The notes beneath the pieces are model-generated. The model worked only from the letters and a program-made list of their open reading frames with translations, was not told the DNA's origin and ran no database searches. DNA of 64,000 nucleotides, from assembly GCA_035695245.1 (NCBI GenBank), contig DASSEQ010000265.1, positions 2,296-66,295 of the forward strand. The letters are read 5' to 3'. The position numbers and the translations under genes were made by a program. Each line of letters starts with the position of its first letter. The stretch's first letter is position 1. Below, piece by piece: positions 319-45,469 of the stretch. Origin of the DNA: Mycobacteriales bacterium (lineage in GTDB: Bacteria > Actinomycetota > Actinomycetes > JAFAQI01).

Positions 319-1677
319 GTGGACCGCCGTATCTATGGGCTCGAGAACGAGTACGGCGTCACGTGCACGTTCCGCGGCCAGCGCAGGCTCTCTCCGGACG
401 AGGTCGCGCGCTACCTCTTCCGCCGGGTCGTGTCCTGGGGCCGCAGCAGCAACGTGTTCCTCAAGAACGGTGCGCGGCTCTACCTCGACGTGGGCAGCCA
501 CCCCGAGTACGCGACTCCCGAGTGCGACAACGTCGTCGACCTCGTCACCCATGACAAGGCGGGGGAGCGCACCCTCGAGGGTCTGCTCATGGACGCCGAG
601 CGCCGCCTGCGCGAGGAAGGCATCGCCGGCGACATCTACCTGTTCAAGAACAACACCGACTCTGCGGGCAACTCCTACGGCTGCCACGAGAACTACCTCG
701 TCGGCCGGCACGGCGAGTTCTCCCGCCTCGCCGACGTGCTCATACCGTTCCTCGTCACCCGCCAGATCGTGTGCGGTGCGGGCAAGGTGTTGCAGACGCC
801 GCGCGGCGCCGTCTACTGCGTGAGTCAGCGCGCCGAACACATCTGGGAGGGCGTCTCGTCGGCGACGACCCGGTCGCGCCCGATCATCAACACGCGCGAC
901 GAGCCGCACGCCGACGCCGAGCGGTTCCGCCGGTTGCACGTCATCGTCGGCGACTCCAACATGTCGGAAACGACGACGCTGTTGAAGATCGGTACGACGG
1001 ACCTCGTGCTGCGGATGATCGAAGCCGGCGTCGTCATGCGCGATCTGACACTGGAGAACGCGATCCGCGCGATCCGCGAGGTGTCGCACGACATGACCGG
1101 CAGGCGCCGGGTCAAGCTTGCCAACGGTCGCGAGGCAAGTGCGCTGGAGATCCAGCTGGAGTACTTCGCCAAGGCGCGCGACTTCGTGCAACGGCGCGGA
1201 GCCGACGCGACTGCAGAGCGCGTGCTCGAGCTCTGGGAGCGCACGCTTCAAGCCGTCGAGACCGGTGATCTCGACAAGGTCGAGCGCGAGATCGACTGGG
1301 TCACCAAGTACAAGCTGATCGAGCGTTACCGCGCAAAGCACGACCTTCCCCTTGCGTCGGCTCGCGTGGCCCAGATCGACCTGGCCTATCACGACGTCAA
1401 CCGCCGCCGCGGCCTCTATTACCTGCTCGAGCGCAAAGGCGCCGTCGACCGCGTCACGTCAGACCTGCGCATCTTCGAAGCAAAGTCGGTCCCACCGCAG
1501 ACGACGCGCGCGCGCCTGCGTGGGGACTTCATCAAACGTGCGCAGGAGCGTCGGCGCGACTTCACCGTCGACTGGGTGCACCTCAAGCTCAACGACCAGG
1601 CACAACGCACCGTCCTCTGCAAGGACCCGTTCCGATCCGTCGACGACCGCGTAGAGAAGCTCATCGCCTCGATGTAG
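319..1677 (+). CDS. pafA: Pup--protein ligase PafA
   Basis: 452 aa with N-terminus [38 protein letters not shown], a near-exact match to the PafA signature (glutamine-synthetase-like fold). The length is canonical. Confidence 0.95.
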
Positions 1678-1752
1678 GTCGCTCGTTGTACGCGGCACGC
1701 CGATGAACTGTCCGAATTTTGGTCGCCCAACGTTCGAAGTCGGCCTTGGCCG

Positions 1753-2514
1753 TTAGCTGGCGGGGCGGCGCCGGGTTTTGCGGTCGGCGTCGGACAGCGC
1801 GGCGTCGAGGAGGGCGACGCTTTCGCGGTCCATGACCAGGGGGAAGGCGCGGTTGACCGCCAGGGCGGCGAGGGGACGCAGCCGCTTCGAGAGGTCCATC
1901 AGCCGGTCGACGTCCTGTTGCGTCAGCAGCGCGGGATCCGGACCGAGCGATGCTGACGTCGTCGTGGCGAAGTCGTGGGCGATCGCGGTCAGGTTCTCGA
2001 CAAGGGTCTCGGCGAGACGCAGGACCGCCGACAGGGGCAGGCCTGCGGAGACCAGTTCACGTGCGACGCCGAGCAGCGCCGGGCTCGGCAGCACGTAGCG
2101 CCGTCCGTGCCGTTGGAGCAGACCAATCTCGACCAAGTGGTCCGCGTGCGACACGCCGAAGTCCGAGCCGAAGGCAGTGCGCAGTTCGGTGAGGGTTACC
2201 GGCTCTGGCGACTCGTCACTCCACGGCATCGTGAGCACCTGCTCGACGCCCAGCACTGCGGAGAGGTCCTTGCCGGACTCCCAGGTGCTCAGCAGCTCGG
2301 CGATGTTGCCCAGCGAGTAGCCGCGGTCCAGCAGTCGGGTGATGAGGCGGAGGCGAGCCAGATGGGCTTCGGCGTACCAACCGACCCGGCCGACGAGGCG
2401 CGGCGGTGGGAGAAGGCCTCGCTCCTGATAGAGGCGGACGTTGCGCGCGGTCGTGCCGGCGGCGCGAGCCAGGTCATCGAGCCGGTAGTCCGTCACCTGA
2501 TGAGTCTCTCGCAC
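1753..2514 (-). CDS. MerR-family transcriptional regulator
   Basis: N-terminal HTH (YRLDDLARAAGTTARNVRLYQERGLL). It is divergent from the diiron oxygenase gene, with a dyad operator in the shared promoter. Confidence 0.85.
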   Translation of the reverse strand: MRETHQVTDYRLDDLARAAGTTARNVRLYQERGLLPPPRLVGRVGWYAEAHLARLRLITRLLDRGYSLGNIAELLSTWESGKDLSAVLGVEQVLTMPWSDESPEPVTLTELRTAFGSDFGVSHADHLVEIGLLQRHGRRYVLPSPALLGVARELVSAGLPLSAVLRLAETLVENLTAIAHDFATTTSASLGPDPALLTQQDVDRLMDLSKRLRPLAALAVNRAFPLVMDRESVALLDAALSDADRKTRRRPAS

Positions 2515-2526
2515 AGCCGGACAAAA

Positions 2527-2542
2527 TGTGACCTACGTCTCA
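2527..2542. promoter_or_regulatory. CRP/FNR-type site TGTGA-cctacg-TCTCA
   Basis: 9/10 match to the TGTGA-N6-TCACA consensus. It lies immediately upstream of the -35 box of the MerR/oxygenase divergent promoter. Confidence 0.45.
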
Positions 2543-2543
2543 G

Positions 2544-2574
2544 TTGACATTGTGCCATCGCAGATTGGCACAAT
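2544..2574 (+). promoter_or_regulatory. MerR-type promoter with operator dyad
   Basis: The -35 is TTGACA (2544-2549). A 19-nt spacer contains a perfect 9-bp inverted repeat ATTGTGCCA-N8-TGGCACAAT (2549-2557 / 2566-2574), and the -10-like hexamer is CACAAT (2569-2574). The ATG at 2581 is only 6 nt after the -10, implying a leaderless mRNA. Confidence 0.55.
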
Positions 2575-2580
2575 CCCCTT

Positions 2581-3510
2581 ATGACCGATCTGATGGCCCC
2601 CGTCTCTGTCGCCGAGGAGCTGGAGTGGCGGGACAGCCGGGAGAAGGTCGCGACAAGGCTGTTGAAGGCCACGGCGGACAAGCACTACGACCCCCGCGTG
2701 GACCTCGACTGGGACCCGCCTTTCCTGCCGGACAAGTTCTTCCTGTGCGAGGAGCACGTGTCGCTCTTCGGCACCCCGCTGTGGGACACGATGAGTCTCG
2801 AGCAGCGGATCGAGCTCTCGAAGCACGAGTCGGCCAGCTGGCTGTCGGCCGGCATCGCCTTCGAGATGCAGCTCGACGCGTTCCTGCTGCGCCACGCGTT
2901 CGTCCGCGACCCAACGAGTCAGCACGTGCGTTACGCCCTGACCGAGATCGAGGACGAGTGCCGGCACTCACTGATGTTCTCGATGATGCTCGAGAAGATG
3001 GGCACGCCGCTTTACTCGTTCCAGCCGAAGCTGCGGGCATTGATCTGGCGCAGCCAGTTCTTCGGCAGCGAGGTCATGGCGTTCATCGGCACGCTCATCG
3101 TCGAGGAGTTCCTCGACGCCGCGCAGCGTCAGATCATGCGCGACGACAACGTGCAACCCCTGGTGCGCGAGATGACGACCATCCACGTCGTCGAGGAAGC
3201 GCGGCACGTGTCCTACGCGCGCAGCGAGCTTGCACGCCAAGTCGAACGCATCGGGCCGAAGCGATTGGCTCTGATCCGGCAGCTGTCGGCATTCATGGCG
3301 TCGGGGATCTACAAGATGCTCGTCGATCCTGCCGTCTACGCCAATGTCGGAATCGATCGTGATCTCGCCCTCGAAGCGGTCAAGCAGAGCGAGCATCGCC
3401 GGCAGTTCCGTCGCGAGCTCACTGCGCGAACGTTCCGCAACTTCTCCGAGCTCGGACTCGTCGGGGGTCGCAGCGCGCAGATGTGGCGAGCCTGGGGCCA
3501 CGACTGCTGA
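2581..3510 (+). CDS. AurF-like diiron oxygenase (ferritin-like, p-aminobenzoate N-oxygenase family)
   Basis: 309 aa with paired carboxylate/His motifs (EDECRHS ... VEEARHV ... EEFLDAAQRQ) typical of diiron carboxylate N-oxygenase-like proteins. Confidence 0.7.
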   Translation: MTDLMAPVSVAEELEWRDSREKVATRLLKATADKHYDPRVDLDWDPPFLPDKFFLCEEHVSLFGTPLWDTMSLEQRIELSKHESASWLSAGIAFEMQLDAFLLRHAFVRDPTSQHVRYALTEIEDECRHSLMFSMMLEKMGTPLYSFQPKLRALIWRSQFFGSEVMAFIGTLIVEEFLDAAQRQIMRDDNVQPLVREMTTIHVVEEARHVSYARSELARQVERIGPKRLALIRQLSAFMASGIYKMLVDPAVYANVGIDRDLALEAVKQSEHRRQFRRELTARTFRNFSELGLVGGRSAQMWRAWGHDC

Positions 3511-3570
3511 ATCTGATCAATCCCTTGCGCTCGGCCGATGCGCCAATCTACAGTGGCGAATACAGGTCAA

Positions 3571-3586
3571 AGTGACCTAAGTCACA
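3571..3586. promoter_or_regulatory. CRP/FNR-type site aGTGA-cctaag-TCACA (perfect palindrome GTGACCTAAGTCAC)
   Basis: Matches TGTGA-N6-TCACA in 9/10 positions. It lies about 100 bp upstream of the secreted-protein gene and shares the core GTGACCTA-GTC with the site at 2527. Confidence 0.45.
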
Positions 3587-3688
3587 CCGAGGCAAAAGGG
3601 GGGCCGTCGGCGACCGCCTGAGTTCACGACCTGGACTCGCATCGCCGCGACATCCATCCGCACCTGCGGTTGGACCCATCGCTCGGCC

Positions 3689-5197
3689 GTGGCCGAAGCC
3701 GTAACCCGAGCCTTCGGTCGATCGTTACATCGTCAGCTGTCCGGTGGGCTCGGTCGCAGCGTCAGCGACGCTGCCAGAGGCGCAGGTGGTGGTCTGTTGC
3801 GGTTTCGATCCAAGGCACTCATGCTGCTCGCCGCAACATCGGCATCGGCCGTTGCCGCGGCAATCGCAGTGCCATCCGCGCAGGCCTCATCGAGCTTCAT
3901 CCCAGGCAGCGCCGGCGGAGTCGCACAGTCACTTCAGATCGCGCCGCGCACCGGTGGTTTCGCTTACACCATCTCGGTCGGCAACGCCATCGCGGACTTC
4001 CGGGGCACGCTGGCGCAAGCCGAGTCACAGGTGCTCGACCTCGGTCTCATCGGCACCGCACTCACAGCGCAGAGCTGTTCGGGTGGCAATCCACTGATCC
4101 AGTCCAGTCAGCTGCCGCAGCCGCTGATCGCCGAGTCTTCCGACGGCGACCACACCGAGTCGCACGACGAAGCCGGCAGCTCACAAAGCGGAGTGCTCGC
4201 CGCCGCCGGTCACGAACAAGTCACGGTCACGAAGACCCCGTCCTCCGCGGCGAGCTTCGACGGCGGCACGATCGGCTTCAACGGGCTGCTGACGGCCAGC
4301 GGCATGTCCACCGCGTCGACGTCAAAGTTGATCCCCGGCCAAGCTCGCCTTGCCACCGCTGATGCCTCGATCGGCCAGCTCAGCTTTCTCGGCGGCATCG
4401 TCGTCCTGAAGAACATGCACTGGAGCGCAAGCCTGCGCACGGGCACCAAGCCGTCGATGAGCGGCACCTTCACCATCGGCGACGCTGTCATCGCCGGGCA
4501 CGAGCAAGCCGTCGGGCCTGCGTCGGCCGGCAGCGTCCTCAATGCGGTGAACGCTCTGATCGCCGCATCCGGCCTGCACCTGACACCACCCACCATCAAG
4601 AAGAACACCACGGGTGGACTCACCATCTCGCCGTTGACGCTTGGCATCGACAACTCGCAGCTCGGTGCGACGGTCGTCAACCCGCTCAACAACGCAACCC
4701 AGCCCGAGCAGCAGCAGCTGGTGCAGATCCTGCTCGGCATCAACTGCCAGTTCGCAACGCCTCTGCTGCTCGAGGACATCGCGGTCGGAGCGGCCGACGG
4801 CACCGGCAGCGCGGACCTGCTCTTCGGCGGCGTCTCGGTCAGCTCCAACGCCGTCGCCTACAGCAACCCATTCGGCTCCGCACAGCTCGGCACGAGCTCC
4901 GGCCAGCCGCTCGGGGGAGTCAGTTCGCCCGCAACCGCCGCCGGGTCGGGCGGCGTCGGTTCGAGCCTTCCCGCGGGAGGCACCGTCGGTGCCGCCCCGG
5001 GAAACACGCCACAGCTCGCCGGGCAGGCGCAGGTCACCCAGTCCTGCGCGACCACCAGTCCGGCGCACTGGCCCGCGTGCAGCAACGGTGCCGCCCTCGC
5101 AGCCGGTCTTCTCGGCCTGGTTGCCGTCGTGGGGGTCGGCGGCGCGGACTTCTTCGTCATGCGCCGGCGGCGACACCTGCCTGAGCTGGATCTCTAA
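3689..5197 (+). CDS. secreted/membrane-anchored Ala/Ser/Gly/Thr-rich protein, unknown function
   Basis: A signal-peptide-like segment MLLAATSASAVAAAIAVPSAQA follows a possible alternative start at 3821. The protein is 502 aa of low-complexity S/A/G/T-rich sequence. A C-terminal hydrophobic helix is followed by RRRR, a membrane anchor. Confidence 0.55.
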   Translation: MAEAVTRAFGRSLHRQLSGGLGRSVSDAARGAGGGLLRFRSKALMLLAATSASAVAAAIAVPSAQASSSFIPGSAGGVAQSLQIAPRTGGFAYTISVGNAIADFRGTLAQAESQVLDLGLIGTALTAQSCSGGNPLIQSSQLPQPLIAESSDGDHTESHDEAGSSQSGVLAAAGHEQVTVTKTPSSAASFDGGTIGFNGLLTASGMSTASTSKLIPGQARLATADASIGQLSFLGGIVVLKNMHWSASLRTGTKPSMSGTFTIGDAVIAGHEQAVGPASAGSVLNAVNALIAASGLHLTPPTIKKNTTGGLTISPLTLGIDNSQLGATVVNPLNNATQPEQQQLVQILLGINCQFATPLLLEDIAVGAADGTGSADLLFGGVSVSSNAVAYSNPFGSAQLGTSSGQPLGGVSSPATAAGSGGVGSSLPAGGTVGAAPGNTPQLAGQAQVTQSCATTSPAHWPACSNGAALAAGLLGLVAVVGVGGADFFVMRRRRHLPELDL

Positions 5198-5223
5198 CCC
5201 GACTCGAGAGGAGACCGGCGCCG

Positions 5224-6855
5224 ATGGCGTTGGGCCCGACACAACGAACGTTCCTGCGTGGCTACGGCCCGCTCGCGTGCCTGTTGCTTGCCTTCGTTCT
5301 CATGGCCGCATTCGTGCCGACCAACGCGCGCGAGCGGGTCACGCTCGCGCAAGGTACGGCGGCCGCGCCCGGCACCGGCGTGACCGGCACTGTTCCTGGC
5401 AGTGGTGCGTCTGTCCCCGGTGCGGTCAAGGGTTCGACGACTGTGGCCGGCACGCAGGTGGCGAAGCCGGGGCAACTTCCGGCCCAGACCACGAAGTGCT
5501 CCGGCAAGCAGGTGCCCGGTGACCCCTACTCACCACCGTGCATCGAGTTCTCCGGCAGCAACGGTGGTTCCACGTCTCGTGGTGTCACGTCCTCCACCAT
5601 CACGGTTGCCTACCGCCAGACCAACGACCCCGGCTTCCAGCAGACCCTCGCGTCCATCGGCGGTGCGCAGTTCGCAGACACACCCGCGGACATCCGTCGC
5701 ACGATCCAAGGGTTGGCCGACTACTTCAACAAGCACTTCCAGTTCTACGGCCGCAAGCTCAACTTCGTCTTCTACAACGGGCAAGGCTCGCAGACCAACG
5801 AGCTTCTCGGCGGGGGTCAGGAACAAGCCAGCGCCGACGCACTGCATGTCTCCAGCGATATCAAAGCCTTCGCGGACATGAGCGCCGCAACCGAGCCGTA
5901 CGGCGACTCGTTGTCGCGCGACAAGGTGTTGAACTTCGGCGAGCCCTATCTCTCCGCCAAGTGGTTCAGCGACCGTTCGCCGTACGCATGGAGCCTCGCG
6001 AGCGACTGCACGTCGGTCAGCGAGGCGTCAGCCGACATCGCGGTCAAGCAGATGCTCGGGAAGAACGCCGTCTACGCCGGGGACACCAGCTTCCAGAAGA
6101 GCAAGCGCAAGCTGGCCATCCTCGCGCCGGACAACCCGTGGTACCAGGACTGCGTCAAGAACGCCGAGGCCATCTTCAAAGCCAACGGTTTCGGCAACCA
6201 GGAGTCCATTCCCTACCAGCTCGACTTGTCCACGTTGTCGAGTCAGGCCGCGAGCATCGTGTCGAAGCTGAAGGCCGACCACGTCACCACGGTGGTCTGC
6301 GGCTGCGATCCCATCTTCCCCGTTTATCTGACGCAGAAGGCAGACGAGCAGCAGTACAACCCGGAGTGGGCGGTCATCGGCGTCGCGCTGACCGACCAGG
6401 ACATCGTCGGTCAGCTGTTCGACCAGAAGGAATGGGCGCACGCCATCGGCGTCACTTACCAAGGCCCGACGATCCCTTATCAGGCAACGTTGGGATACGC
6501 CGCATACAAGAGTGTCCGCAGTGACGAACCGGCCCAGGCGGTCGACCTCATCTACGCACAGATGTACATGCTTGCCCTCGGCATCGACCTCGCCGGCCCG
6601 GACCTCACCCCCCAGACCTACCTCAAGGGCATGCAGAGCTACTCCGGCGGCACTGGCGAGTTCGGCACCTGGGGCTTCCCGCCCGGCGACTACACGCCGA
6701 CACGCGATGGTGCCGAGATCTATTGGGATCCCAACGCAACTTCCGCCTACAACGGCAAGCAAGGCGCATACGTGTTCGCCAGCGGCCGCTACCAGCCGGG
6801 CCATTGGCCGCAAGCGGCTGAGCCTCCGCACACGCCCTACCGGGCAGTGAGGTGA
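5224..6855 (+). CDS. ABC transporter substrate-binding protein (Liv/amide-type periplasmic binding fold)
   Basis: Strong RBS GAGAGGAG, an N-terminal signal/TM segment, and a linker followed by a type I periplasmic binding domain. Its stop overlaps the start of the permease gene (GTGA). Confidence 0.75.
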   Translation: MALGPTQRTFLRGYGPLACLLLAFVLMAAFVPTNARERVTLAQGTAAAPGTGVTGTVPGSGASVPGAVKGSTTVAGTQVAKPGQLPAQTTKCSGKQVPGDPYSPPCIEFSGSNGGSTSRGVTSSTITVAYRQTNDPGFQQTLASIGGAQFADTPADIRRTIQGLADYFNKHFQFYGRKLNFVFYNGQGSQTNELLGGGQEQASADALHVSSDIKAFADMSAATEPYGDSLSRDKVLNFGEPYLSAKWFSDRSPYAWSLASDCTSVSEASADIAVKQMLGKNAVYAGDTSFQKSKRKLAILAPDNPWYQDCVKNAEAIFKANGFGNQESIPYQLDLSTLSSQAASIVSKLKADHVTTVVCGCDPIFPVYLTQKADEQQYNPEWAVIGVALTDQDIVGQLFDQKEWAHAIGVTYQGPTIPYQATLGYAAYKSVRSDEPAQAVDLIYAQMYMLALGIDLAGPDLTPQTYLKGMQSYSGGTGEFGTWGFPPGDYTPTRDGAEIYWDPNATSAYNGKQGAYVFASGRYQPGHWPQAAEPPHTPYRAVR

Positions 6856-9800
6856 ACCGCGCGGTCGAGTTGCTCCGACGGTCCCGCCCGCTCACCATCG
6901 GCGGCGCGATCGTGGTGGCGCTCCTCGTCGCGATGCTCGCCTCGCCCGGCCGGGTCCCGTTCGGCATCGCCCTGCAAGGCGCGTTGTACGGCACGACGAC
7001 CGGCCTCCTCGGGATCGGTCTCGTTCTGACCTACCGTTCGGACCGGATCGTCAACTTCTCGTACGGCGCAATGGGCGGCGTCGGCGCGTCCGTGGGCGTG
7101 CTGCTCTATCTGGGCAAGCACTGGAACTACCTGATCTGCATCTTCATCGGACTCGCGGTCGGCGGTCTCGTCGGGGCCGGCACCGAGATGTTCGTCATCC
7201 GCCGCTTTGCTCGTGCGCCGCGGCTGATCCTGACCGTCGCGACAATCGGTTTGGCGCAGGTGCTGGGCGGCATCCAGTTGCTGCTGCCGAAGTGGTTGTC
7301 CGCACCCGCGCTTGTCGGTGGCTTCAAGACGCCGCTCTCCGGACCACATCTCAACGTCGGCCCGGTGCTCTTCACCGGCGACGCGCTGCTTGTCGTCGCC
7401 GTCGTGCCGGTCGCGATCCTGTTGCTGGCCTACTTCCTGCTGCGCACCGATGCCGGCGTTGCCATCCGCGCGATCGCGGACAACCGCGACCGCGCAATGC
7501 TCGTCGGCGTCCCGATCCGACGACTGGCCACTGTCGTATGGATCGTGGCCGGGGTGCTCGCGGCGCTCACCACCTTGCTGTCCGCCCCGACGGCCGGCCT
7601 CACCATCAACGCGGCCGCCGGACCGACCCTGCTGCTTCCCGCGCTTGCCGCGGCCGTCATTGCCGGCATGGAGTCGCTCCCCATCGCGTTCGTCGCCGGC
7701 ACCGGCCTCGGCGTCCTCGATGCGGTTGTCCGCTGGAACTTCACCAAGCAGTCCGTGTCGACCGTCGCCTTCCTGATCGTCATCCTGTTGGCACTGCTCG
7801 GCCAGCGCGAGTCCGGTCGCCGCGAGAATGCCGAGGACTCCTCGCTGTCAACGGCAGCGGCCGCGGTCACCCAGATCCCCAGCGCGCTGCGCCGCTTGCC
7901 CGAGGTGGTCGCCGGCCGCGTGATCGGCCTCACCCTTCTGGGGATTCTCGTCATCGCCGTTCCCGCCGCCGCCAGCGAGAGCACGGTGCGCATCTTCAGC
8001 GTCGGCGTCATCTACGCGATCGTCGCGGTCTCCCTGGTCGTGCTGTCAGGTTGGGCCGGGGAGATCAGCCTCGGGCAATACGCACTCGTCGGCATCGGCG
8101 GCGTTGTCGCCGGCAACATGATCACGCACTGGAACGTCGACTTCTTCGTCTGCCTCGTCTGCGCCGCGACGGCGGGAGCCGTCCTCGCCGTACTCGTCGG
8201 GCTTCCTGCTCTCCGGATTCGTGGGTTGTTCCTGGCCGTCACGACTCTCGCCCTCGCCGTGGCCGCAGACGCCTTCTTCTTCAACCCGACCAACTTCGCG
8301 TCCTTGATCCCGTCGTCGATCGACCGGCCGATCTTGTGGAAGCGCTTCGACCTGACCAACGAGCGGGCGCTCTACTACCTGTGCCTCGCCATGCTCGTCT
8401 TGACCATCGTCGTCGTTCGCGGACTTCGCCAGGCTCGTGCCGGTCGCGTCATGCTCGCAACCCGGGACAACCCTCGGGCTGCTGCAGCGATGGCGGTGCC
8501 GACGACGCGCATCAAACTGCTCTGTTTCGTCATCTCCGGGGCGATCGCCGGCATGGCCGGCGGCTTGCACGCACTCATTCTTCAGTCGATCGGATTCGGC
8601 ACCTACCAACCGTCCGAAAGCCTGCTGGTGTTCTCGATGGTTGTCATCGGGGGACTCGGGTCGATCGGGGGCGCCCTGCTCGGCGTGCTCGCCATCGAAT
8701 GCGCTGTGCACCTGTTCCCGCAGTACCAGCTGGTCATCACCGGCACCGGTCTGCTGTTGGTCCTGCTCCTGTTGCCGGGTGGCCTCGCATCGGCGCTCAC
8801 TGCCCTGCGCGACCGGCTACTGACGCTGGTCGCGCGGCGCCACGGCATCGACCTGACGCCGACCGCGGCAGGAGCGACCGACGTCGACGCGGCCGTCGAG
8901 CCCGTATCGGTCGAGCACCTTGCAGACAGCGACACGCTGTTCCACTGCCGAGGGGTGGAGGTGAAGTACGGCGCAATGCAGGTGCTGTTCGGTGCGGACC
9001 TGGAGGTCCGAGAGGGCGAGATCGTGGCCTTGCTGGGCACCAACGGCGCCGGCAAGTCGACTCTTCTCAAGGCTATCGCGGGCCTCGTCCCGCCGTCGGG
9101 CGGGCGCGTCGTCTTCGCCGGTCAGGACGTGACGTCGGCTTCAACCCAGAGGAAGGCGACCACGGGCCTGGCCATGATGCCGGCAAAGTCGGTCTTCCCG
9201 TCGTTGACGGTGGACGAAAACCTGCGGATCGCGGCCTGGCTGGTGCGTGGCGACGCCGCCGCGGCCGAAGCAGCACGCGACGAAGTGCGCGACTTGTTCC
9301 CGGTCCTGCGCGAGCGACGCGGCCAGGTGGCCGGGAACCTTTCCGGTGGCGAGCAGCAGATGCTCTCGCTCGCGATGGCACTCATGACCAGGCCCCGACT
9401 GCTGCTGATCGACGAGCTGTCGCTTGGGCTGGCGCCGACGATCGTCGGACGCCTGCTCGGCGTCGTGCGCCAGCTGGTCGAACGCGGCGTGACCGTCGTC
9501 ATCGTCGAGCAATCGGTCAACGTTGCCCTCGAGCTCGCCGAGCGCGCCGTCTTCCTGGAGAAGGGGCAGGTGCGGTTCAGCGGCCGCACCGCTGATCTGC
9601 TCGCCCGGCCCGACGTCCTGCGCTCAGTGTTCATCGCGGGAGCGGCGACGGTCGAGCAGCCGAAGAAGCCGGCCCGCGGCCGCGGCCGCGCTCGCACGGC
9701 GCCAGCGCAACGCACCGCGCTCGAGATCGCGCAGACCGAACCGCAGCCGATCGTCCTCGAGTGCCAGTCGGTCGTGAAGGACTTCGGCGGCGTTCGCGCC

Positions 9801-10550
9801 CTCGATCATGTCGACCTCGCTCTGCACAAGCACGAGATCCTCGGTCTCATCGGTCACAACGGCGCCGGGAAGACGACGCTGTTCGACGTCATCTGCGGGT
9901 TTCTGCCGAGCGACCGCGGACGGGTGTTGTTCGGCGGCGCACCGATGGATGCCTTCCCGCCGTCAGATCGCGCCTTCCTCGGGCTCGGCCGTTCGTTCCA
10001 GGAAGCACGGCTCTACCCCTCGTTGACGGTCGAAGAGACGATCGCCGTCGCCTTCGAGCGACACCTGTTCTCACGCGACGTCGTCGCTGCCGGTCTTCGG
10101 CTGCCTGCCTCGACGCTGTCCGAGATGGCCGTCGCACAACGAGTCGGCGAGCTCATCGAGCAGCTCGGACTCGGCCGCTACGCCGAGTCGCTCGTCGGCC
10201 AGCTCTCCACCGGCACGCGACGGATCGTCGAGCTCGGGTGTGTCCTCGCCCAGGATCCCGCGGTGCTGCTTCTCGACGAGCCGACGGGAGGCGTCGCGCA
10301 GAAGGAGACCGAAGCGCTGGGCCCGCTGCTGCGTCAGGTGCGGGAGGAGACCGGCTGCGCCATGCTCGTCATCGAGCACGACATGCCGCTGCTGACGTCA
10401 CTGTGCGACCGACTGGTCGCCCTCGAGCTCGGTCAGGTCATCGCCGAAGGGGCACCGGCGGCTGTGCTCGAACACCCGCGGGTGATCGAGTCCTACCTCG
10501 GCACCGACGCAGCGGCAACCAACAGGTCCGGGGCGCTCGCGAACACCTAG
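6852..10550 (+). CDS. fused branched-chain-amino-acid-type ABC importer: permease(LivH-like)-permease(LivM-like)-ATPase(LivF-like)-ATPase(LivG-like)
   Basis: A single 1232-aa ORF. Two polytopic permease domains are followed by two ABC ATPase domains, with Walker A GTNGAGKST and GHNGAGKTT and signatures LSGGEQQML and LSTGTRRIV. Confidence 0.85.
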   Translation: MNRAVELLRRSRPLTIGGAIVVALLVAMLASPGRVPFGIALQGALYGTTTGLLGIGLVLTYRSDRIVNFSYGAMGGVGASVGVLLYLGKHWNYLICIFIGLAVGGLVGAGTEMFVIRRFARAPRLILTVATIGLAQVLGGIQLLLPKWLSAPALVGGFKTPLSGPHLNVGPVLFTGDALLVVAVVPVAILLLAYFLLRTDAGVAIRAIADNRDRAMLVGVPIRRLATVVWIVAGVLAALTTLLSAPTAGLTINAAAGPTLLLPALAAAVIAGMESLPIAFVAGTGLGVLDAVVRWNFTKQSVSTVAFLIVILLALLGQRESGRRENAEDSSLSTAAAAVTQIPSALRRLPEVVAGRVIGLTLLGILVIAVPAAASESTVRIFSVGVIYAIVAVSLVVLSGWAGEISLGQYALVGIGGVVAGNMITHWNVDFFVCLVCAATAGAVLAVLVGLPALRIRGLFLAVTTLALAVAADAFFFNPTNFASLIPSSIDRPILWKRFDLTNERALYYLCLAMLVLTIVVVRGLRQARAGRVMLATRDNPRAAAAMAVPTTRIKLLCFVISGAIAGMAGGLHALILQSIGFGTYQPSESLLVFSMVVIGGLGSIGGALLGVLAIECAVHLFPQYQLVITGTGLLLVLLLLPGGLASALTALRDRLLTLVARRHGIDLTPTAAGATDVDAAVEPVSVEHLADSDTLFHCRGVEVKYGAMQVLFGADLEVREGEIVALLGTNGAGKSTLLKAIAGLVPPSGGRVVFAGQDVTSASTQRKATTGLAMMPAKSVFPSLTVDENLRIAAWLVRGDAAAAEAARDEVRDLFPVLRERRGQVAGNLSGGEQQMLSLAMALMTRPRLLLIDELSLGLAPTIVGRLLGVVRQLVERGVTVVIVEQSVNVALELAERAVFLEKGQVRFSGRTADLLARPDVLRSVFIAGAATVEQPKKPARGRGRARTAPAQRTALEIAQTEPQPIVLECQSVVKDFGGVRALDHVDLALHKHEILGLIGHNGAGKTTLFDVICGFLPSDRGRVLFGGAPMDAFPPSDRAFLGLGRSFQEARLYPSLTVEETIAVAFERHLFSRDVVAAGLRLPASTLSEMAVAQRVGELIEQLGLGRYAESLVGQLSTGTRRIVELGCVLAQDPAVLLLDEPTGGVAQKETEALGPLLRQVREETGCAMLVIEHDMPLLTSLCDRLVALELGQVIAEGAPAAVLEHPRVIESYLGTDAAATNRSGALANT

Positions 10551-10559
10551 GGTTACGTC

Positions 10560-11996
10560 GTGTCTCACCCGGGCTCGCAGCGCGCTCTACGACAACCGCG
10601 GGTGCGCACACCGCGACCGTTGCTCGGACACCGGCTGCCTTCGGGCCGAGGAGCGACGGAGCAACCCAACGCCGCCGGCGACGCCGAAACCCCACTAACG
10701 GCAACCTTCTGGCTTCTTGTCATCGCGACCGGGATCGCGACAGGGTTGCTCGGCGCATTCATGATGTGGCTGCTGCACGGGGTGCAACATCTTGCCTTTG
10801 GTTACTCCTCCGGCACCTTCGGTCCGGGGGTCCGTCACGCCGCACCGGGGCGCCGGCTGCTCGCGCTCGTCCTTGCCGGCGCATTTGCGGGCGTCGCGTG
10901 GTTCTGGCTGCGACGGCTGACGGCGGCGGAGAGCTCAGACCTCGACGACCAGATCTGGACGGGCGACGGCACGCTGTCGTTTCGCCGGTCGCTGGGCACG
11001 TCGGTGCTGTCGGAGGTCGTCGTGGGCGCGGGTGCCTCGCTCGGGCGCGAGGCCGCCCCGAAGTTGATGGGCGGCGCTGCTGCCAGTGCGCTCGCGCGGT
11101 GGCGCGGACTGAGCGTCTCGCAGCGGCGGCTGCTGGTGGCGTGCGGCGGTGGCGCTGGAATGGGCGCGGTCTACAACGTGCCTCTCGGCGGCGCGCTGAT
11201 CACGGCGGAGCTTCTCTACGGAAGCTTGGCCCTCCCGGTCATCCTGCCCGCGCTGGCCTGTTCGTGGATCGCCACCGCGGTGTCGTGGGTCTATCTGCCG
11301 ACGGCTGCGACGTACGCCGATCTGCCGTCGTACCCGTTACGTGCGACGGTTGTCGTCTTTGCGCTTGTCGTCGGGCCGATCATCGGTCTGCTCTCCGTCG
11401 GGTACATCCGGCTGATCGGCTGGGTGTCGCACTACCGTGCCTCGGGCCGGATCTTGCTCGTCGCGCCGCTGGCGGCATTCTTCGTGCTCGGACTGGTCGC
11501 TCTTGCCTACCCGCAGGTGCTGGGCAACGGAAAGGACCTCGCGCACACGGCATTCCTGTCGCACGGTGGCGAGACTTTTGCGCTGGTGCTCGTCTTGTTC
11601 GCGTTGAAGCCGCTCGTGACCGCTATGTGTCTCGGCAGCGGTGTCACGGGTGGTCTGTTCACCCCGACGATGAGCACCGGAGCGATCCTCGGCGTCGTGC
11701 TCGGCAAGATCTGGGTGCAGATGTGGCCCGGCAGCCCGGTCGGCGCGTTCGCCATCGTCGCCGCCGCAGCAGCAATCGGGGCGGCGATGCAAACGCCGCT
11801 CTCCGCCTTGGCGTTGATGATCGAGCTGACCCGCACGACGGACACGCTCATTGTCCCGATGATCGCGGCGACGGTGTTGGCGACGATGGTGGCGCGCTAT
11901 CTCGATGGCTACTCGATCTACTCCTCGCGCCTGCCGGCCCCGACCGCACCGGAGCGACTGCACGGCGACTCCGAGGCGGGCGGCGAGCGCCTATGA
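10560..11996 (+). CDS. ClC-family voltage-gated chloride channel / H+-Cl- antiporter
   Basis: ClC selectivity motifs GREAAP and GGLFTP, about 10 TM helices. The start codon is uncertain (GTG at 10560). Confidence 0.8.
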   Translation: MSHPGSQRALRQPRVRTPRPLLGHRLPSGRGATEQPNAAGDAETPLTATFWLLVIATGIATGLLGAFMMWLLHGVQHLAFGYSSGTFGPGVRHAAPGRRLLALVLAGAFAGVAWFWLRRLTAAESSDLDDQIWTGDGTLSFRRSLGTSVLSEVVVGAGASLGREAAPKLMGGAAASALARWRGLSVSQRRLLVACGGGAGMGAVYNVPLGGALITAELLYGSLALPVILPALACSWIATAVSWVYLPTAATYADLPSYPLRATVVVFALVVGPIIGLLSVGYIRLIGWVSHYRASGRILLVAPLAAFFVLGLVALAYPQVLGNGKDLAHTAFLSHGGETFALVLVLFALKPLVTAMCLGSGVTGGLFTPTMSTGAILGVVLGKIWVQMWPGSPVGAFAIVAAAAAIGAAMQTPLSALALMIELTRTTDTLIVPMIAATVLATMVARYLDGYSIYSSRLPAPTAPERLHGDSEAGGERL

Positions 11997-11999
11997 CGG

Positions 12000-13496
12000 C
12001 TACCTGGCGCTGACCAGTCGCGTCGGTGCCGCTCGGCCGCGCAGCACCGTCTCGCCGGCGGACTCCCAATGCGCGCACTCAGCAGGATCTGCGGTGTCGA
12101 GCACAGCGGCGCTCACGAGCACGCGTTCCGGCCGCGTCTTTGCCAGCTCGCTGAGCCGGGCTGCTTCGTTCACCGGATCGCCAATGACCGTGAACTCGAA
12201 ACGCTCGCGGGTGCCGACATTGCCGGCGACGACGTCCCCGGATGAGACGCCGATCGCTGCGGACAGGCCGTTGATGTCGGCAAGCCGGTCTCGCAGCAAC
12301 CTGGCGGCCAGCAGCGCGCACGTGTCGGCGTCCGCGCGAGGCACAGGAGCGCCGAAGACACAGAGCGCGGCATCACCCTCGAACTTGTTGACGATCCCGC
12401 CGGTGCGGTCGACGACATCGACGACGACCGCGAAGAACTCGTTGAGCGCCGAGACGACGGCGGTCGGCGGCAGCGTTGTTGCGAGCGCAGTCGAGCCGAT
12501 CACATCGACAAAGAGAACAGCGGCATGCACCTGATCGCCGCCGAGCCTGATGCCGCGTTCCAGCGCGTGCCGGGCAACATCCTCACCAACCTGACGGCCA
12601 AACAGGTCGCGCAGCCGGCGCCGCTCGCGCAGCCCTTCGACCATCGCGTTGAACCCGGCCTGCAACTGCCCGATCTGGCTGCCGTCGTATACCGGCACGG
12701 CGATGTCGAGCCGACCCGCCTCCACATCGGCGAGGGCGGCGGTCACTGACTCAACCGGATCCGCGACCGAGCGAGCGGCTACGCCCATCGCCGCAGCTCC
12801 CGAGAGCAATGCAACGACGCCGAGGAACGCAAGGGCGGCCGGAGAGATCGGCTTGTCGCCATGATCGAAGGCCATCAGGATGATGCCGATGATCGGCACC
12901 GCCGATCCAATCAGCCATGACAGCAACAGTCTCGACTTGACGCCGGGTATGTAGGGGTCGGTGGGCACACCCTCGGCGAACGCAAGGGCGTTGAGTGGAC
13001 GCAGAATGCGTTCGGCCAGCAGGTAGGTGAGACCGCTCGTGGTAATCGCGCCGAGCAGGATCGTCGACGCGACATCGGAGACGAAGCGCGAGCCGAATCT
13101 CGTGTTCAGCGGCAGGAACAACGCCTCCGAACCCATCCACATCGTGAAGTTGATGACTGTCTGCCGCAGTGGATGGCGCACCACGTAGGTGCGCAGCGAG
13201 GTGCTCAGCGGCTCGCCTTCGACAACCCAACGATGGATGGGTGAGAAGGCCCGGGCACCCCAGGTGCAGCCCATCAGCAACGAGAAGAACATGTACGCGA
13301 TCAAAGCGACGACGTTGGCGGTGTCCTGCCGCTCGTTGGCCGGTAAGAGCAAGCCGAGAAACAGGAACACAACAGCCGCGCCGACGATGTTGGCAGCACC
13401 CATCGAAGCACCGAAGCGCAACTCGATCCGTGCCATCAACGCTTTGCGCTCGGCGGACACGACCGCGCCGGCGATGCCGTGCGCTGCCGCGGTCAT
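12000..13496 (-). CDS. membrane-anchored class III adenylate cyclase with HAMP domain
   Basis: Six N-terminal TM helices, a HAMP-like linker (AVPVYDGSQIGQLQAGFNAMVEGLR) and a cyclase catalytic domain (LFVDVIGSTALA ... KFEGDAALCVFGAP). Confidence 0.85.
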   Translation of the reverse strand: MTAAAHGIAGAVVSAERKALMARIELRFGASMGAANIVGAAVVFLFLGLLLPANERQDTANVVALIAYMFFSLLMGCTWGARAFSPIHRWVVEGEPLSTSLRTYVVRHPLRQTVINFTMWMGSEALFLPLNTRFGSRFVSDVASTILLGAITTSGLTYLLAERILRPLNALAFAEGVPTDPYIPGVKSRLLLSWLIGSAVPIIGIILMAFDHGDKPISPAALAFLGVVALLSGAAAMGVAARSVADPVESVTAALADVEAGRLDIAVPVYDGSQIGQLQAGFNAMVEGLRERRRLRDLFGRQVGEDVARHALERGIRLGGDQVHAAVLFVDVIGSTALATTLPPTAVVSALNEFFAVVVDVVDRTGGIVNKFEGDAALCVFGAPVPRADADTCALLAARLLRDRLADINGLSAAIGVSSGDVVAGNVGTRERFEFTVIGDPVNEAARLSELAKTRPERVLVSAAVLDTADPAECAHWESAGETVLRGRAAPTRLVSAR

Positions 13497-13540
13497 GTTG
13501 GCAGTGTGACAGGCGTCATCTCACGGCGCTGTGGGCGAAA

Positions 13541-14605
13541 TCACAAGAGCGTCGCCGTATGGCGTCCGGCAGCTGCCGCAGCGAGGAAGTACGCCGGATC
13601 GTCACCGAGACCGCGGCCCATCGTTGTCAGCGCCACCGGCGTCTCGGACAGTCGGTCATGCAGACCGTCGACATCCACCTCGACGAGGCGGTGCCGCGCC
13701 GCCAACGGTGCGCAGGCCGCCCGCACGTCGGCGCCGAACTGTCCGTCGAGCACGGGTACGACGACATCCGCCGGCAACAACGCGACGCGTCCGAGCGCAG
13801 TGAGCGTGTGATGTGAGACGCCTCGATGACGCGGGCGGTCATCGACCGCAGAAACTCGCAACGCAGCGACCGGGCGACCACCTACCGTCGCGGTTGCGTT
13901 GATCGCTTCTCCGGTGGCAACGCCGCTGAAGCCCCAGCGCGTGCCGGTCCCGAGATTGCCGGGACCTTGCGTCACCACCACGACGTCCGCGCCTAGCACG
14001 AGCCGCGCGGCGAGCAGGCCGGAATGCAACGTGACCGCCTCGAGGTCGCCGCCGAATGATTGCCCGACGGTGACCGTCGCCGTCAACCAACCGGCTTCGC
14101 GCAGCGGTGGGACGGTGCGGGAGAACCACAGTGGCAGCGCACCACCATCACTCATCAGGTAGACGACGCGAGCTTGCGGCGCGCGCTCGCGCAACCCGGC
14201 GAGCACTGCTGGCAACGCTGAATGCAAGTCCGCGACGACGACCGGCATGCCGCCGACGTCGTCAGCATCGCGGAGCAGCGAGTGATGTGCAGAGCCTTGT
14301 TCGTCGGCGGCGAGCACGGTCGCTTGCATTGGCGAGTAGCGCGCCTTGACGACATGACCAGGCTCGTCGGCATCCACCGGTAGCCGGTCGGGCAGCGCGA
14401 CCACGAGCGCGTAACCACCGGTGCCGAGACCGAGAGTCAAAGCCGTCACGTTGAGCAGGACGCGGTCGCCGACCTGCGGTGCGCCGACCAGACGCGGATA
14501 TGCAAGCGCCGGGACATCGCCCTCGCCAGTGGTCGCAACCAGCTCGACAACGTCGGCGTTCGCCGTAACGACCGTCGCGACCCGAGCGTCGCGCCAGCGA
14601 ATCAC
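13541..14605 (-). CDS. DUF3866-like conserved actinobacterial protein
   Basis: 354 aa, no recognisable catalytic motif. The family assignment comes from memory of overall composition, so it is tentative. Confidence 0.5.
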   Translation of the reverse strand: MIRWRDARVATVVTANADVVELVATTGEGDVPALAYPRLVGAPQVGDRVLLNVTALTLGLGTGGYALVVALPDRLPVDADEPGHVVKARYSPMQATVLAADEQGSAHHSLLRDADDVGGMPVVVADLHSALPAVLAGLRERAPQARVVYLMSDGGALPLWFSRTVPPLREAGWLTATVTVGQSFGGDLEAVTLHSGLLAARLVLGADVVVVTQGPGNLGTGTRWGFSGVATGEAINATATVGGRPVAALRVSAVDDRPRHRGVSHHTLTALGRVALLPADVVVPVLDGQFGADVRAACAPLAARHRLVEVDVDGLHDRLSETPVALTTMGRGLGDDPAYFLAAAAAGRHTATLL

Positions 14606-14740
14606 GTCCGCACCCTATGCGCGGCAGCACGACTCGTGGTGGATCGCATGGCCGCGTCGAGGGGGCGCGGAAGCGACGTCCCCGCGCCATTGCTTCCGCT
14701 GACGGGTCGTTTGGCTTGGCGAGCCGGCCCGTCGGTCGGG

Positions 14741-16360
14741 TCAGTAGATGGCGCGATGCGCCGCGCGCAGTGCGGCCCGTCGTACCGGGCCGGCAATGCC
14801 CGCGTTGCGCAACGCCGACGTGGCGGCGATGGCCCCGGGGCCGCCGTGCACGCCGCCGCCGGGATGGGCGGAAGCCGAGGCGAGGTAGAGCCGCCCGACC
14901 GGGAGCTCGGGGCGGCCCAACCCGGGGACGGGCCGCCAAAACAGCTGCTGGTGGACGGCCGCGCTCCCGCCGTTGACGGCGCCGAGGTGCAGGTCGAGGT
15001 CTGCGGCCTGCAGATCGAGTGGCCCGAAGACGTGGCGCGCGATGACCTTGCTCCGAAAACCGGGCGCGTGCCGCTCGACCTCGGACTCGAGCCGCTCGAC
15101 CACCGCCTGGACCTCACGCTCATCCCAGCGGCCGGTGATGCCGTCGTTGCCGGCATCGGCCCGCACCCGCTGCGGCAGGTGCGTGTAGCCCCAAGCCGAC
15201 TCGGTGCCGGCCGGCGATCGGGTGGCATCCGCCGTGGTCATCTGGCCGAGCACGACGTACGGGCGGGAGGGCACCGCCCCCATCGCGAGCTGGTGCGCGT
15301 AGCTGCTCAGCTCGTCGATGCTGCCACCGAGGTGCACGGTGCCGGCAAGCCCGCATTCGGGGTCGCGCCACGGGATCGGCGCGGACAGTGCCCAGTCGAC
15401 CTTGAGTGTCGCGTTGTCCCACTGGAAGCGGCGAACATCGTCGACGATCCGCGCCGGCAGGTGCTCAGGTCCGACGAGGTCGCGGAGCAGCTGTGGTGCG
15501 TCGACAGCTGCGAGCACCGCCCGGGCCGCTCCCACCGCGGTGCCGTCCGCAGTGCGCACCCCTACCGCCCGGCCACCGCGCACGTCGATGCGGGCGACAC
15601 GCACACCACAGTGCAGATCACCGCCTCGGGCTCGAAGCCGGTCAACGAGAGCCTCGGTCAGCTTGCCGGCACCACCGACAGGGACGGGAAACCCGATCGT
15701 CTGGCCGAGCATGGACAACAGCCAGCCGAAGACCGCACTCCCGGCCGCATCCGGCCCGAGGTCGGTGTGAAAGGCGTTGCCGGCGACCAGCGAGGTCGCG
15801 CCGACACCGGTGAAGCACTCCTCGCCCCACCGCCGAAGCGGCTGCACGAAGAACCGGGCGAACCTCAACAGCTCGGCCAGGCCCAGCTGGCGAACCAGCC
15901 CTACTGAAGGGGCAACCGGAGGGAAGGGGCGGAAGAGTGCGTTGATGAAAGGGTCACGAATGCTGTCGAACCGATCGACAAGGTCGATCCACGCATCACC
16001 ATCGCCCGCTCCGAACTTCTCCAGGTTGGCGGCAGTGGCGGACGGGTCGCGATGCAGGAGGGCGGTCCTCTCGGCGTCGACGGGGTGAGCAACCACCGTC
16101 GGTGCTTGCGTCCAGCGGAGTCCCCAGCGCTCCAGATCCAGTGCGGAGATGACGGGGGACGCCACAGCGAGGGGATAGACCGCGCTGAAGAGGTCGTTGA
16201 CGAACCCGGGGGCGGTGACCTCAGCCGACTTGACCGCGCCGCCGGGGCTGTCCGCCGCCTCCAGGACGGTGACCGACCAGCCGGCGTCGGCGAGCATGTT
16301 TGCCGCGACGAGCCCATTGACGCCCGCGCCCACGACAACTGCGTCCGTCACCTTGTGCAC
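14741..16360 (-). CDS. phytoene-desaturase-family FAD/NAD(P)-dependent oxidoreductase (CrtI-like)
   Basis: N-terminal dinucleotide-binding motif VVVGAGVNGLVAANMLADAGWSVTVLEA, 539 aa. Confidence 0.8.
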   Translation of the reverse strand: MHKVTDAVVVGAGVNGLVAANMLADAGWSVTVLEAADSPGGAVKSAEVTAPGFVNDLFSAVYPLAVASPVISALDLERWGLRWTQAPTVVAHPVDAERTALLHRDPSATAANLEKFGAGDGDAWIDLVDRFDSIRDPFINALFRPFPPVAPSVGLVRQLGLAELLRFARFFVQPLRRWGEECFTGVGATSLVAGNAFHTDLGPDAAGSAVFGWLLSMLGQTIGFPVPVGGAGKLTEALVDRLRARGGDLHCGVRVARIDVRGGRAVGVRTADGTAVGAARAVLAAVDAPQLLRDLVGPEHLPARIVDDVRRFQWDNATLKVDWALSAPIPWRDPECGLAGTVHLGGSIDELSSYAHQLAMGAVPSRPYVVLGQMTTADATRSPAGTESAWGYTHLPQRVRADAGNDGITGRWDEREVQAVVERLESEVERHAPGFRSKVIARHVFGPLDLQAADLDLHLGAVNGGSAAVHQQLFWRPVPGLGRPELPVGRLYLASASAHPGGGVHGGPGAIAATSALRNAGIAGPVRRAALRAAHRAIY

Positions 16361-16413
16361 CTCCCCGCGTCGCCGCCACCGGAACCCGCCTTCCGCCGGT
16401 AGCGTGACGCACC

Positions 16414-17364
16414 GTGTCGTCCCGGCGGACCGAGCGGTTGCTCAACCTTGTCATCTGCCTGCTGCACACCCGGTCGTTCCTGACTGCCGAGCGCATCCGC
16501 GAGCTCGTCCCCGGCTACGACGATGCGCCGTCGGAGGATGCCTTCAAGCGCGCCTTCGAGCGCGACAAGGAAGATCTTCGCGACCTCGGCATCCCGCTGG
16601 AGACCGGCACCAACAGCGCGTTCGACGATGAGCCCGGCTACCGCATCGCCAGGCGCGACTACGCGCTGCCTGAGGTTCGCCTCGAGGCGGACGAGGCCGC
16701 CGCGGTCGGGCTGGCTGCGCGGATGTGGACGTCGGCGACCATGGGCGCGGCCGCGACCCGGGCGCTTCGCAAGCTCGAAGCGGCCGGCGTCGAGCTGGCG
16801 CCGCTGCCGGAGGGCCTGCAACCCCGGCTGGAGTCGACCGATGCCGCGTTTCCCGACCTGGCCGAGGCTGTGCACGACGGACGGGTGGTCACCTTCGACT
16901 ACCGCACCAGCGCCGGTGGCGACGAGTCGCGTCGCACCGTCGAGCCGTGGGGGCTCGCTTGGTGGCACGGGCGGTGGTACCTCGTCGGCCACGACCGCGA
17001 CCGAGACGCCACCCGCGTGTTCCGGCTCTCGCGCATCACCACAGCACCCGTTCCGAGCGGCCGCGCCGGCGCGGCGCACCGTCCTGAAGGCGTGGACCTC
17101 ACCGCGATCGTCGCCTCCTACGACTCGGCCGCTCCGGCGCAGAACGCCCGACTGCGAGTGCGGTCCGGCCGCGGGCTCGGCCTGCGCCGCCGCGCGGCGT
17201 CCGTCACAACCGGGGACGATGACTGGGACATCGTCGAGCTGCCTGCCCCGGACGTGTCCCGGCTCGTCGACCAGGTGCTTCCTTACGGGGCCGACGTCGT
17301 GGTCGAGCACCCACCCGAGGCGGTCGCGAGCGTCGTACGACGGCTGAAGGCGCTGGCCGGATGA
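16414..17364 (+). CDS. pafB: proteasome accessory factor PafB (HTH-WYL regulator)
   Basis: N-terminus MSSRRTERLLNLVICLLHTRSFLTAERIRELVPGY is the PafB HTH; a WYL domain follows. The gene overlaps pafC by 4 nt. Confidence 0.9.
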   Translation: MSSRRTERLLNLVICLLHTRSFLTAERIRELVPGYDDAPSEDAFKRAFERDKEDLRDLGIPLETGTNSAFDDEPGYRIARRDYALPEVRLEADEAAAVGLAARMWTSATMGAAATRALRKLEAAGVELAPLPEGLQPRLESTDAAFPDLAEAVHDGRVVTFDYRTSAGGDESRRTVEPWGLAWWHGRWYLVGHDRDRDATRVFRLSRITTAPVPSGRAGAAHRPEGVDLTAIVASYDSAAPAQNARLRVRSGRGLGLRRRAASVTTGDDDWDIVELPAPDVSRLVDQVLPYGADVVVEHPPEAVASVVRRLKALAG

Positions 17365-29991: not shown

Positions 29992-30245
29992 CGCGGCTGA
30001 CCTCGGCACTGAATCACCCCTTCCGCCCACTCAAGCCGGTCGCGAAGCCGGCCGAAGCCAACAGTGTCTCCGGCACCCGCTGGGGACGCAGGGCACGGTG
30101 ATCCGAGCGACCCTCACCGACCCGACGCGGTAGCGCCCGCGGCGGGCACGGAGACAACACGGTCGCCTAGGTTGCTCGGGGAGTGAGTGGCGAGACCGGC
30201 CTGGCCTTTCAGGGGTGAAAGCCCCGAGGGACGGGAGAGCACTCC

Positions 30246-30482: not shown

Positions 30483-30524
30483 TCAGCGAGTGGGCGTCGA
30501 GCCATTGGGCCGGCGCCCACTGCC

Positions 30525-30989
30525 ATGTCGCTGGATAGGGTCGCGGCCGTGGAGGACCTCGACCGGCAGATCCTGCGACTGCTGACGCAAGACGGGCGGC
30601 GCAGTTTCACCGATCTCGCGAAGGAGACCGGCCTGTCCGTCTCAGCCGTCCACCAGCGGGTCAGGCGACTCGAGAAGCGCGGCACTCTCCGCGGCTACTA
30701 CGCCGTGATCGACCCCGACACGGTCGACCTGCCGCTCACCGCATTCGTCTCGATAAAGCCGATCGACCCGGCCGCTCCGGACGACGCCCCGGACCGGCTG
30801 TCACATCTGAGCGCCATCGAGGCCTGCCACAGCGTCGCCGGCGACGAGAGCTACATCCTCAAGGTCCGAGTGGCGTCTCCAGCCGCGTTGGAGGCACTGC
30901 TGCAGGAGATCCGGGCCGCCGCCAACGTGTCGACACGGACCACCGTCGTGCTGTCCACACCGTTCGAGGGTCGACCGCCGGCGATCTGA
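30525..30989 (+). CDS. Lrp/AsnC-family transcriptional regulator
   Basis: HTH (LDRQILRLLTQDGRRSFTDLAKETGLSVSAVHQRVRRLE) plus a RAM/AsnC_trans domain. Confidence 0.9.
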   Translation: MSLDRVAAVEDLDRQILRLLTQDGRRSFTDLAKETGLSVSAVHQRVRRLEKRGTLRGYYAVIDPDTVDLPLTAFVSIKPIDPAAPDDAPDRLSHLSAIEACHSVAGDESYILKVRVASPAALEALLQEIRAAANVSTRTTVVLSTPFEGRPPAI

Positions 30990-31112
30990 GCCCGCCCCGC
31001 CGTCACTCTCCGTGCCAACACGGTGTGTCAGATTGCCGTCACACCGACATTTCGGGCATCGTGTGCGCCGCCAGGGGGGCCAGACCACGAACGCCACAGA
31101 GGAATCCTTTAC

Positions 31113-45454: not shown

Positions 45455-45469
45455 GGGCGGAGCCTCCTG

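Follow-up and report, generated by a model that had tools for sequence, protein, structure and literature searches.

Three palindromic boxes in DNA of an uncultured soil actinobacterium, here called S1, S2 and S3, are predicted operators of a CRP-family transcription factor, a reading to which we assign a probability of roughly 70%. This factor is most likely a cAMP-binding orthologue of CRP/GlxR/Rv3676 in a Frankiales-like actinobacterium. S1 lies in the divergent promoter region between merR1 and the gene for an AurF-family diiron oxygenase, S2 downstream of aurF and S3 ahead of a membrane adenylate cyclase gene (Table 1). The boxes appear to be an ordinary but well-supported case of predicted cAMP-dependent gene control in an uncultured soil actinobacterium, and they leave the existing picture of CRP biology unchanged. 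What they add is a conserved, probably class II box on a cyclase gene, which would imply positive feedback. They also provide a regulatory map for this lineage, in which cAMP-CRP would govern its own cyclase, an AurF-family oxygenase and a LIV-type ABC uptake operon, and a clear case of binding-site turnover, in which a box persists but shifts by whole helical turns beside a MerR-type promoter.

Table 1. Positions of the boxes, promoters, genes and riboswitch matches in the window
Feature	Position	Strand	Remarks
pafA	319-1677		
merR1	1753-2496	-	MerR_1 HTH, 247 aa from GTG 2496; domain search
S1, CRP-type box	2527-2542	.	merR1-aurF divergent promoter region
aurF promoter, MerR type	2544-2574	+	TTGACA 2544-2549, 19-bp spacer, CACAAT 2569-2574
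aurF, AurF-family diiron oxygenase	2581-3510	+	PF11583, E 6e-82
Candidate promoter	3525-3559	+	TTGCGC-18-TACAGT, read from sequence; with GCGCCA-N8-TGGCG palindrome, candidate MerR2-type operator
S2, CRP-type box	3571-3586	.	Regulatory region of merR2(relic)-secreted protein-ABC operon, downstream of aurF
merR2 relic	3587-3820	+	Internally deleted; alignment with L013, L004 and L016; tblastn
Operon: signal-peptide protein, binding protein, ABC permease-ATPase	3821-10550	+	Domain searches
Signal-peptide protein	3821-5197	+	
Peripla_BP_6 binding protein	5224-6855	+	
LIV-type permease	6852-10550	+	Fused with two ATPase domains
CLC channel	10560-11996		
Membrane adenylate cyclase	12000-13496	-	HAMP, class III
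Weaker box	13505-13520	-	Two mismatches; overlaps cyclase -10
S3, CRP-type box	13530-13545	-	Overlaps DUF3866 stop codon
DUF3866 gene	13541-14605	-	Stop codon inside S3
PafB-like WYL protein	from 16408		
c-di-GMP-II-GAG riboswitch	30082-30210	+	Rfam, 46.7 bits; gathering threshold 40
Glycine riboswitch aptamer	45581-45675	-	68 bits

Sequence match and chance expectation

The window, that is, the whole 64-kb stretch of DNA analysed, was scored against TGTGA-N6-TCACA at up to one mismatch, and related loci were scored at up to two. The preliminary description of this DNA had placed two palindromes, TGTGACCTACGTCTCA (2527-2542, S1) and AGTGACCTAAGTCACA (3571-3586, S2), and read both as matches to the actinobacterial CRP consensus. 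The positions hold, an earlier 17-mer having taken in the A at 2526, and so does the match: each has a single mismatch to TGTGA-N6-TCACA, which is the GlxR consensus (PMC7999487). The scan of the window added S3, likewise with one mismatch. These three sites compare with 0.95 expected in 64 kb; three or more were reached in 4 of 100 shuffles of the window, and other actinobacterial DNA (0.98 Mb) has a background of 0.015 sites per kb. All three are intergenic, and the probability of at least one site in the respective intergenic stretch, obtained by shuffling, is 0.0017, 0.0046 and 0.0007. The boxes also match 6-7 of the 8 defined bases of the CRP_Mt consensus NGTGNNANNNNNCACA, a mycobacterial consensus (PMC2844151). 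The right half of S1 reads TCTCA, not TCACA, which we count against the CRP reading.

S1 and S2 both have a central TA within N6 and share a 12-nt core, GTGACCTA(C/A)GTC, in direct orientation on either side of aurF. Their near identity, noted in the preliminary description, is real in the window, but the N6 is lineage-specific: the likeness is missing in L013, L004 and L016, so the shared core is not part of the motif. For the same reason, we dropped the core as a longer motif or target-site duplication. Motifs of the BldD type (TNAC-N5-GTNA) and FNR type (TTGAT-N4-ATCAA) were likewise set aside, since by inspection their half-sites do not fit.

It is scarcely credible that the boxes arose by chance, or that they are remnants of some repeat or mobile cassette flanking aurF as direct repeats. 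A cassette would account for the direct orientation of the core and for the lack of merR-aurF in the nearest genome (L018). However, the half-sites are kept in L013, L004 and L016 while the shared N6 is not, and the third box lies elsewhere, at the cyclase promoter; chance is opposed by shuffle probabilities of 0.0007-0.0046 per region.

Conservation across related loci

The comparison set comprised 17 related loci and 80 pafA loci, with about 12 related metagenomic lineages. Three loci came from a metagenome scan and most from a search for encoding contigs. An AurF search of genome contigs returned no close relative, and all close AurF relatives stem from metagenomes of soil or the rhizosphere. 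Judged by PafA, the closest genome (95% identity) is L018, a fragmented Frankiales MAG in which pafA, the cyclase gene and the DUF3866 gene follow in this order, with no merR-aurF between pafA and the cyclase gene.

Boxes at up to two mismatches are almost confined to three places in the related loci. The distinct orthologous sites number 18, all within two mismatches, and 16 of these keep GTG-N8-CAC, with its G2/G4 and C13/C15 contacts, while N6 varies freely; in S1 and its variant in L013, C13 and C15 are retained but A14 is changed to T. CRP reads the G2/G4 positions through its RETVGR helix (PMC10187061). Half-sites are thus retained in orthologous loci while N6, flanks and exact position change, and the divergent flanks indicate that the related loci are not assembly duplicates of a single sequence.

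A strict sigma-70 and terminator scan called nothing in the sequence, so we identified promoters visually by their conserved hexamers. Transcription start sites (TSSs) were placed using -10-like hexamers and the lack of a leader, and all box positions given below depend on them.

A box at the cyclase promoter

The preliminary description had also pointed to a membrane adenylate cyclase encoded 9 kb away, and the gene found there does encode HAMP and class III cyclase domains with at least four hydrophobic segments. A distance of 9 kb by itself proves nothing. In four lineages (L008, L014, L015 and L017), the cyclase gene, with its own box, stands directly beside aurF, so the ABC/CLC block is variable.

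S3 reads TGTGATTTCGCCCACA on the cyclase strand (TGTGGGCGAAATCACA in the window). Along the cyclase strand it is followed by 21 nt, a -10-like CACACT (13503-13508), 6 nt and the ATG at 13496, and its centre lies at -41.5 from this ATG, given a leaderless start. Neither a Shine-Dalgarno sequence nor a -35 hexamer was seen at the cyclase promoter. The same four lineages keep the spacing, with (G/C)ACA(C/A)T and a GTG start, although the intervening 21 nt have diverged; from hexamer to start codon the interval is 6 or 7 nt. Across the cyclase loci the box centre is at -41.5 or -42.5, again assuming a leaderless start; the 23 nt, rather than 21 nt, between box and -10 in L018 count against this regularity. 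A site centred at -41.5 has class II geometry (PMC2844151). From the -35 position of a leaderless cyclase promoter, S3 is thus expected to serve the cyclase gene as a class II activator site, and cAMP would reinforce its own synthesis.

S3 is present in all six loci in which the cyclase gene comes after DUF3866 (the window, L008, L014, L015, L017 and L018) and in none of the 22 DUF3866 loci not followed by a cyclase gene. Since the left half of S3 coincides with the Leu-stop codons (CTG TGA) of DUF3866 in some lineages, its conservation is partly coding, which we count against the CRP reading. The cyclase boxes of L015 and L017 lie 22-23 nt beyond the DUF3866 stop codon and are fully non-coding.

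These patterns bear on whether the boxes might be bound by a cAMP-unresponsive CRP/FNR-family paralogue (Cmr-like or responding to another effector), with the neighbouring cyclase a coincidence. The motif alone cannot separate family members with the same recognition helix, and DNA binding by CRP_Mt itself shows little cAMP dependence (PMC2844151). However, a box at the class II position occurs only where the cyclase is present, tying the motif to cAMP metabolism, and we consider such a paralogue unlikely. Searching the 64-kb window by tblastn with Rv3676 and E. coli CRP (approximate query sequences) gave no CRP homologue, which counts against the CRP reading.

The weaker box over the cyclase -10 was rejected as a second site: it is not conserved in relatives and is probably due to chance. 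Its placement, 25 bp from S3, is reminiscent of whiB1, where an activating and a repressing site stand in tandem. A separate peculiarity is seen in L015, where GGTGTGACCTTGTCGCCGTAGG is tandemly duplicated (two copies, ~3689-3730 on the cyclase strand) just upstream of the box, with two extra TGTGACC half-sites.

A sliding box between merR1 and aurF

The merR1 gene, whose start codon was picked by N-terminal conservation across loci, is divergent from aurF, and the aurF promoter has the hallmarks of an over-long-spacer MerR-type promoter, its spacer bearing a 24-bp palindrome, TTGTGCCA-N8-TGGCACAA (2550-2573). The aurF ATG (2581) lies only 7 nt past the -10, suggesting a leaderless mRNA. This architecture, a MerR-type promoter driving a presumably leaderless AurF-family gene (2544-2581 in the window; L001-L017), is kept in 12 of 12 lineages. 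On the opposite strand, a -10-like GAGACT (2503-2508) stands 6 nt ahead of the merR1 GTG, replaced at the same place in relatives by CACAAT, GACAAT, AAGAAT or GAGAAT, and merR1 appears to be leaderless too.

S1 ends 1 nt before TTGACA (2544-2549) and so does abut the -35 of the MerR/oxygenase promoter, as originally proposed. Measured from the inferred TSSs, its centre falls at -46.5 for aurF and at -38.5 for merR1; the former matches neither the class I nor the class II positions that are canonical in E. coli and is counted against the CRP reading. L001, L011 and L012 carry exactly this box, and L013 has a single N6 change; within the window's own group the box is preserved while the 30 nt to its left are scrambled.

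A box occurs in the merR1-aurF spacer of 10 of the 12 lineages; the related lineages L009 and L010 have no boxes, which counts against the CRP reading. Its form and its distance from the aurF -35 vary together: TGTGAC(C/G)TACGTCTCA lies 1 nt away (window, L001, L011, L012, L013), TGTGG-N6-TCAC(A/C/G) 12 nt away (L008, L014, L015, L017) and CGTG(A/G)-N6-TCAC(T/A) 21-22 nt away (L004-7, L016). Every box-bearing lineage has the box over the merR1 core promoter, with the -10 itself overlapped in the 12-nt and 21-22-nt classes, which predicts repression of merR1. Toward aurF, the distance shifts by about one and two helical turns, a pattern that would fit activation from a single helix face. Placed between two back-to-back leaderless promoters, S1 would thus be expected to repress merR1 and, from 1 bp upstream of the aurF -35, could co-activate the MerR-type promoter.

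The displacement can be followed in a merR1-aurF spacer of constant length, the box at 2926-2941 in L004 having slid 9-10 bp relative to that at 774-789 in L008. The right half-site of L004 (TGTCAC) occupies the place of the left half-site of L008 (TGTGGG). The CCATTGT common to both loci is the merR1 -10 (ACAAT) on the opposite strand.

The box downstream of aurF and a decayed merR2

S2 begins 61 nt past the aurF stop codon. The preliminary description had put it upstream of the secreted-protein/ABC operon, and upstream it is, but 235 nt from the start codon, with a merR2 relic in between. Only a few N-terminal and about 27 C-terminal codons of this relic are recognisable (tblastn, 27 aa, E 3e-5). 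L004-7 and L016 have an intact merR2 in translational coupling with the secreted-protein gene; in L013 its start is visible, and the contig ends there. S2 was thus originally a site of a second merR gene, now decayed in the window.

A box is found downstream of aurF in 6 of 6 lineages that have a same-strand next gene with an upstream intergenic region; the counterparts of S2 are AGTGACCCAGATCACA (L013), TGTGATCTAGGTCACT (L004-7) and TGTGACCTGCGTCACC (L016). The arrangement around it takes two forms. The box of L004-7 and L016 takes up the spacer of TTGNTA-17/18-TATNGT ahead of intact merR2 and is followed by the palindrome TGCGCCA...TGGCGCA. In the window, L001, L011 and L013, TTGC(G/C)(C/A)-17/18-TACAGT lies over a TGCGCCA...TGGCGCA-type palindrome ahead of the box, which puts S2 at about +10 to +26 from the inferred 3525-3559 promoter. 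The merR2 start codon of L013 is 19 nt past the box, too close for a promoter to fit downstream of it. Positions within or after the core promoter predict repression, and S2 would thus be a candidate repressor site for the merR2/secreted-protein/ABC operon.

Alternatively, the boxes could be operators of a local or other non-CRP regulator, for example a MerR paralogue recognising GTGA-N6-TCAC, since S1 and S2 always occur alongside merR1 and merR2 or its relic. We regard this as decidedly improbable. The palindromes of MerR type (TGTGCCA...TGGCACA and TGCGCCA...TGGCGCA) differ from the boxes in sequence and adjoin them, S2 persists unaltered where merR2 has been lost, so that MerR2 is not its ligand, and S3 is present in L018, where merR-aurF is lacking between pafA and the cyclase gene.

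A second palindrome, AGGTCA-AAG-TGACCT (3565-3579), overlaps the left half of S2. Its L013 version is GGGTC-GAAGT-GACCC, with A-T changed to G-C on both sides. This hairpin (-7.5 kcal/mol, z -1.7), its two-sided change and the location of S2 shortly past the aurF stop codon would suit palindromes that act as RNA, in terminator or leader hairpins. Yet RNA folding of the boxes themselves is not significant (z-scores of +0.75, -1.68 and -0.71), a T-run is lacking and no terminator was called, half-site variants such as TGTGG/TCACA are not compensatory, and transcription from the inferred start sites would leave out S1 and S3, which lie upstream; Rfam gave no match at 2400-3900. An RNA role is therefore very improbable, and binding by a CRP-family protein remains our preferred reading of the boxes.

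A more ambitious version of the CRP reading is a compact, conserved cAMP module made up of the three boxes. Here, the cyclase gene would be turned on by its own product through its class II CRP box (positive feedback and a possible bistable switch), CRP would act on two paralogous MerR-controlled promoters (with two-input logic at the 19-bp-spacer promoter), and the box would slide along one helix face (1, 12 and 21-22 bp from the -35). We offer this only tentatively and consider it doubtful as a whole.

Gene context and other elements of the window

The pafA and PafB-like WYL genes are ~14.7 kb apart in the window (319-17364), and a DUF3866 gene near pafA is widely syntenic in actinobacteria (L018-L049). 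Searches against NCBIfam left AurF, the secreted protein and the binding protein without specific names. Two riboswitch matches lie elsewhere in the window. The c-di-GMP-II-GAG match is ~270 nt upstream of genes for an AsnC/Lrp-type regulator (30483-30989) and a CAP/SCP-domain protein (30990-31853). The glycine aptamer immediately precedes the glycine cleavage P-protein gene (42599-45571), which is the usual arrangement.

Comparison with known systems

GlxR of Corynebacterium glutamicum has the same TGTGA-N6-TCACA consensus, including the central TA of S1 and S2 (PMC7999487, PMC10187061). It acts as both activator and repressor (PMC7999487, PMC10187061, PMC7026483), and both roles are predicted for the factor binding the boxes described here. 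Furthermore, the membrane-bound HAMP cyclase CyaB of C. glutamicum resembles the window cyclase (PMC7026483). The targets differ: here they would be a MerR-controlled AurF-family oxygenase gene and a LIV-type ABC operon. We found no report of a class II box on cyaB, whereas S3 would be such a box on the cyclase gene of the window.

In Mycobacterium tuberculosis, the closest parallel is CRP (Rv3676) at the CRP1 and CRP2 sites of whiB1, the agreement with the CRP_Mt consensus being that given above. At whiB1, CRP_Mt is an activator when bound at -58.5 and a repressor when bound at -37.5; the corresponding positions here, resting on inferred start sites, are about -57.5 from aurF in four lineages and -38.5 from merR1 in the window (PMC2844151). 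The promoter partner is unlike that at whiB1, being of MerR type with a 19-bp spacer.

In the class II CRP-dependent promoters of E. coli (galP1 type), the site is centred at -41.5. The E. coli cyaA gene is repressed, not activated, by cAMP-CRP. S3 resembles the class II promoters in lying 21 nt before a -10, with no -35 hexamer and with its centre at -41.5 from the start codon, taken as the TSS; it differs in that the window mRNA is probably leaderless and in that the -10 is of the actinobacterial nAnnnT type.
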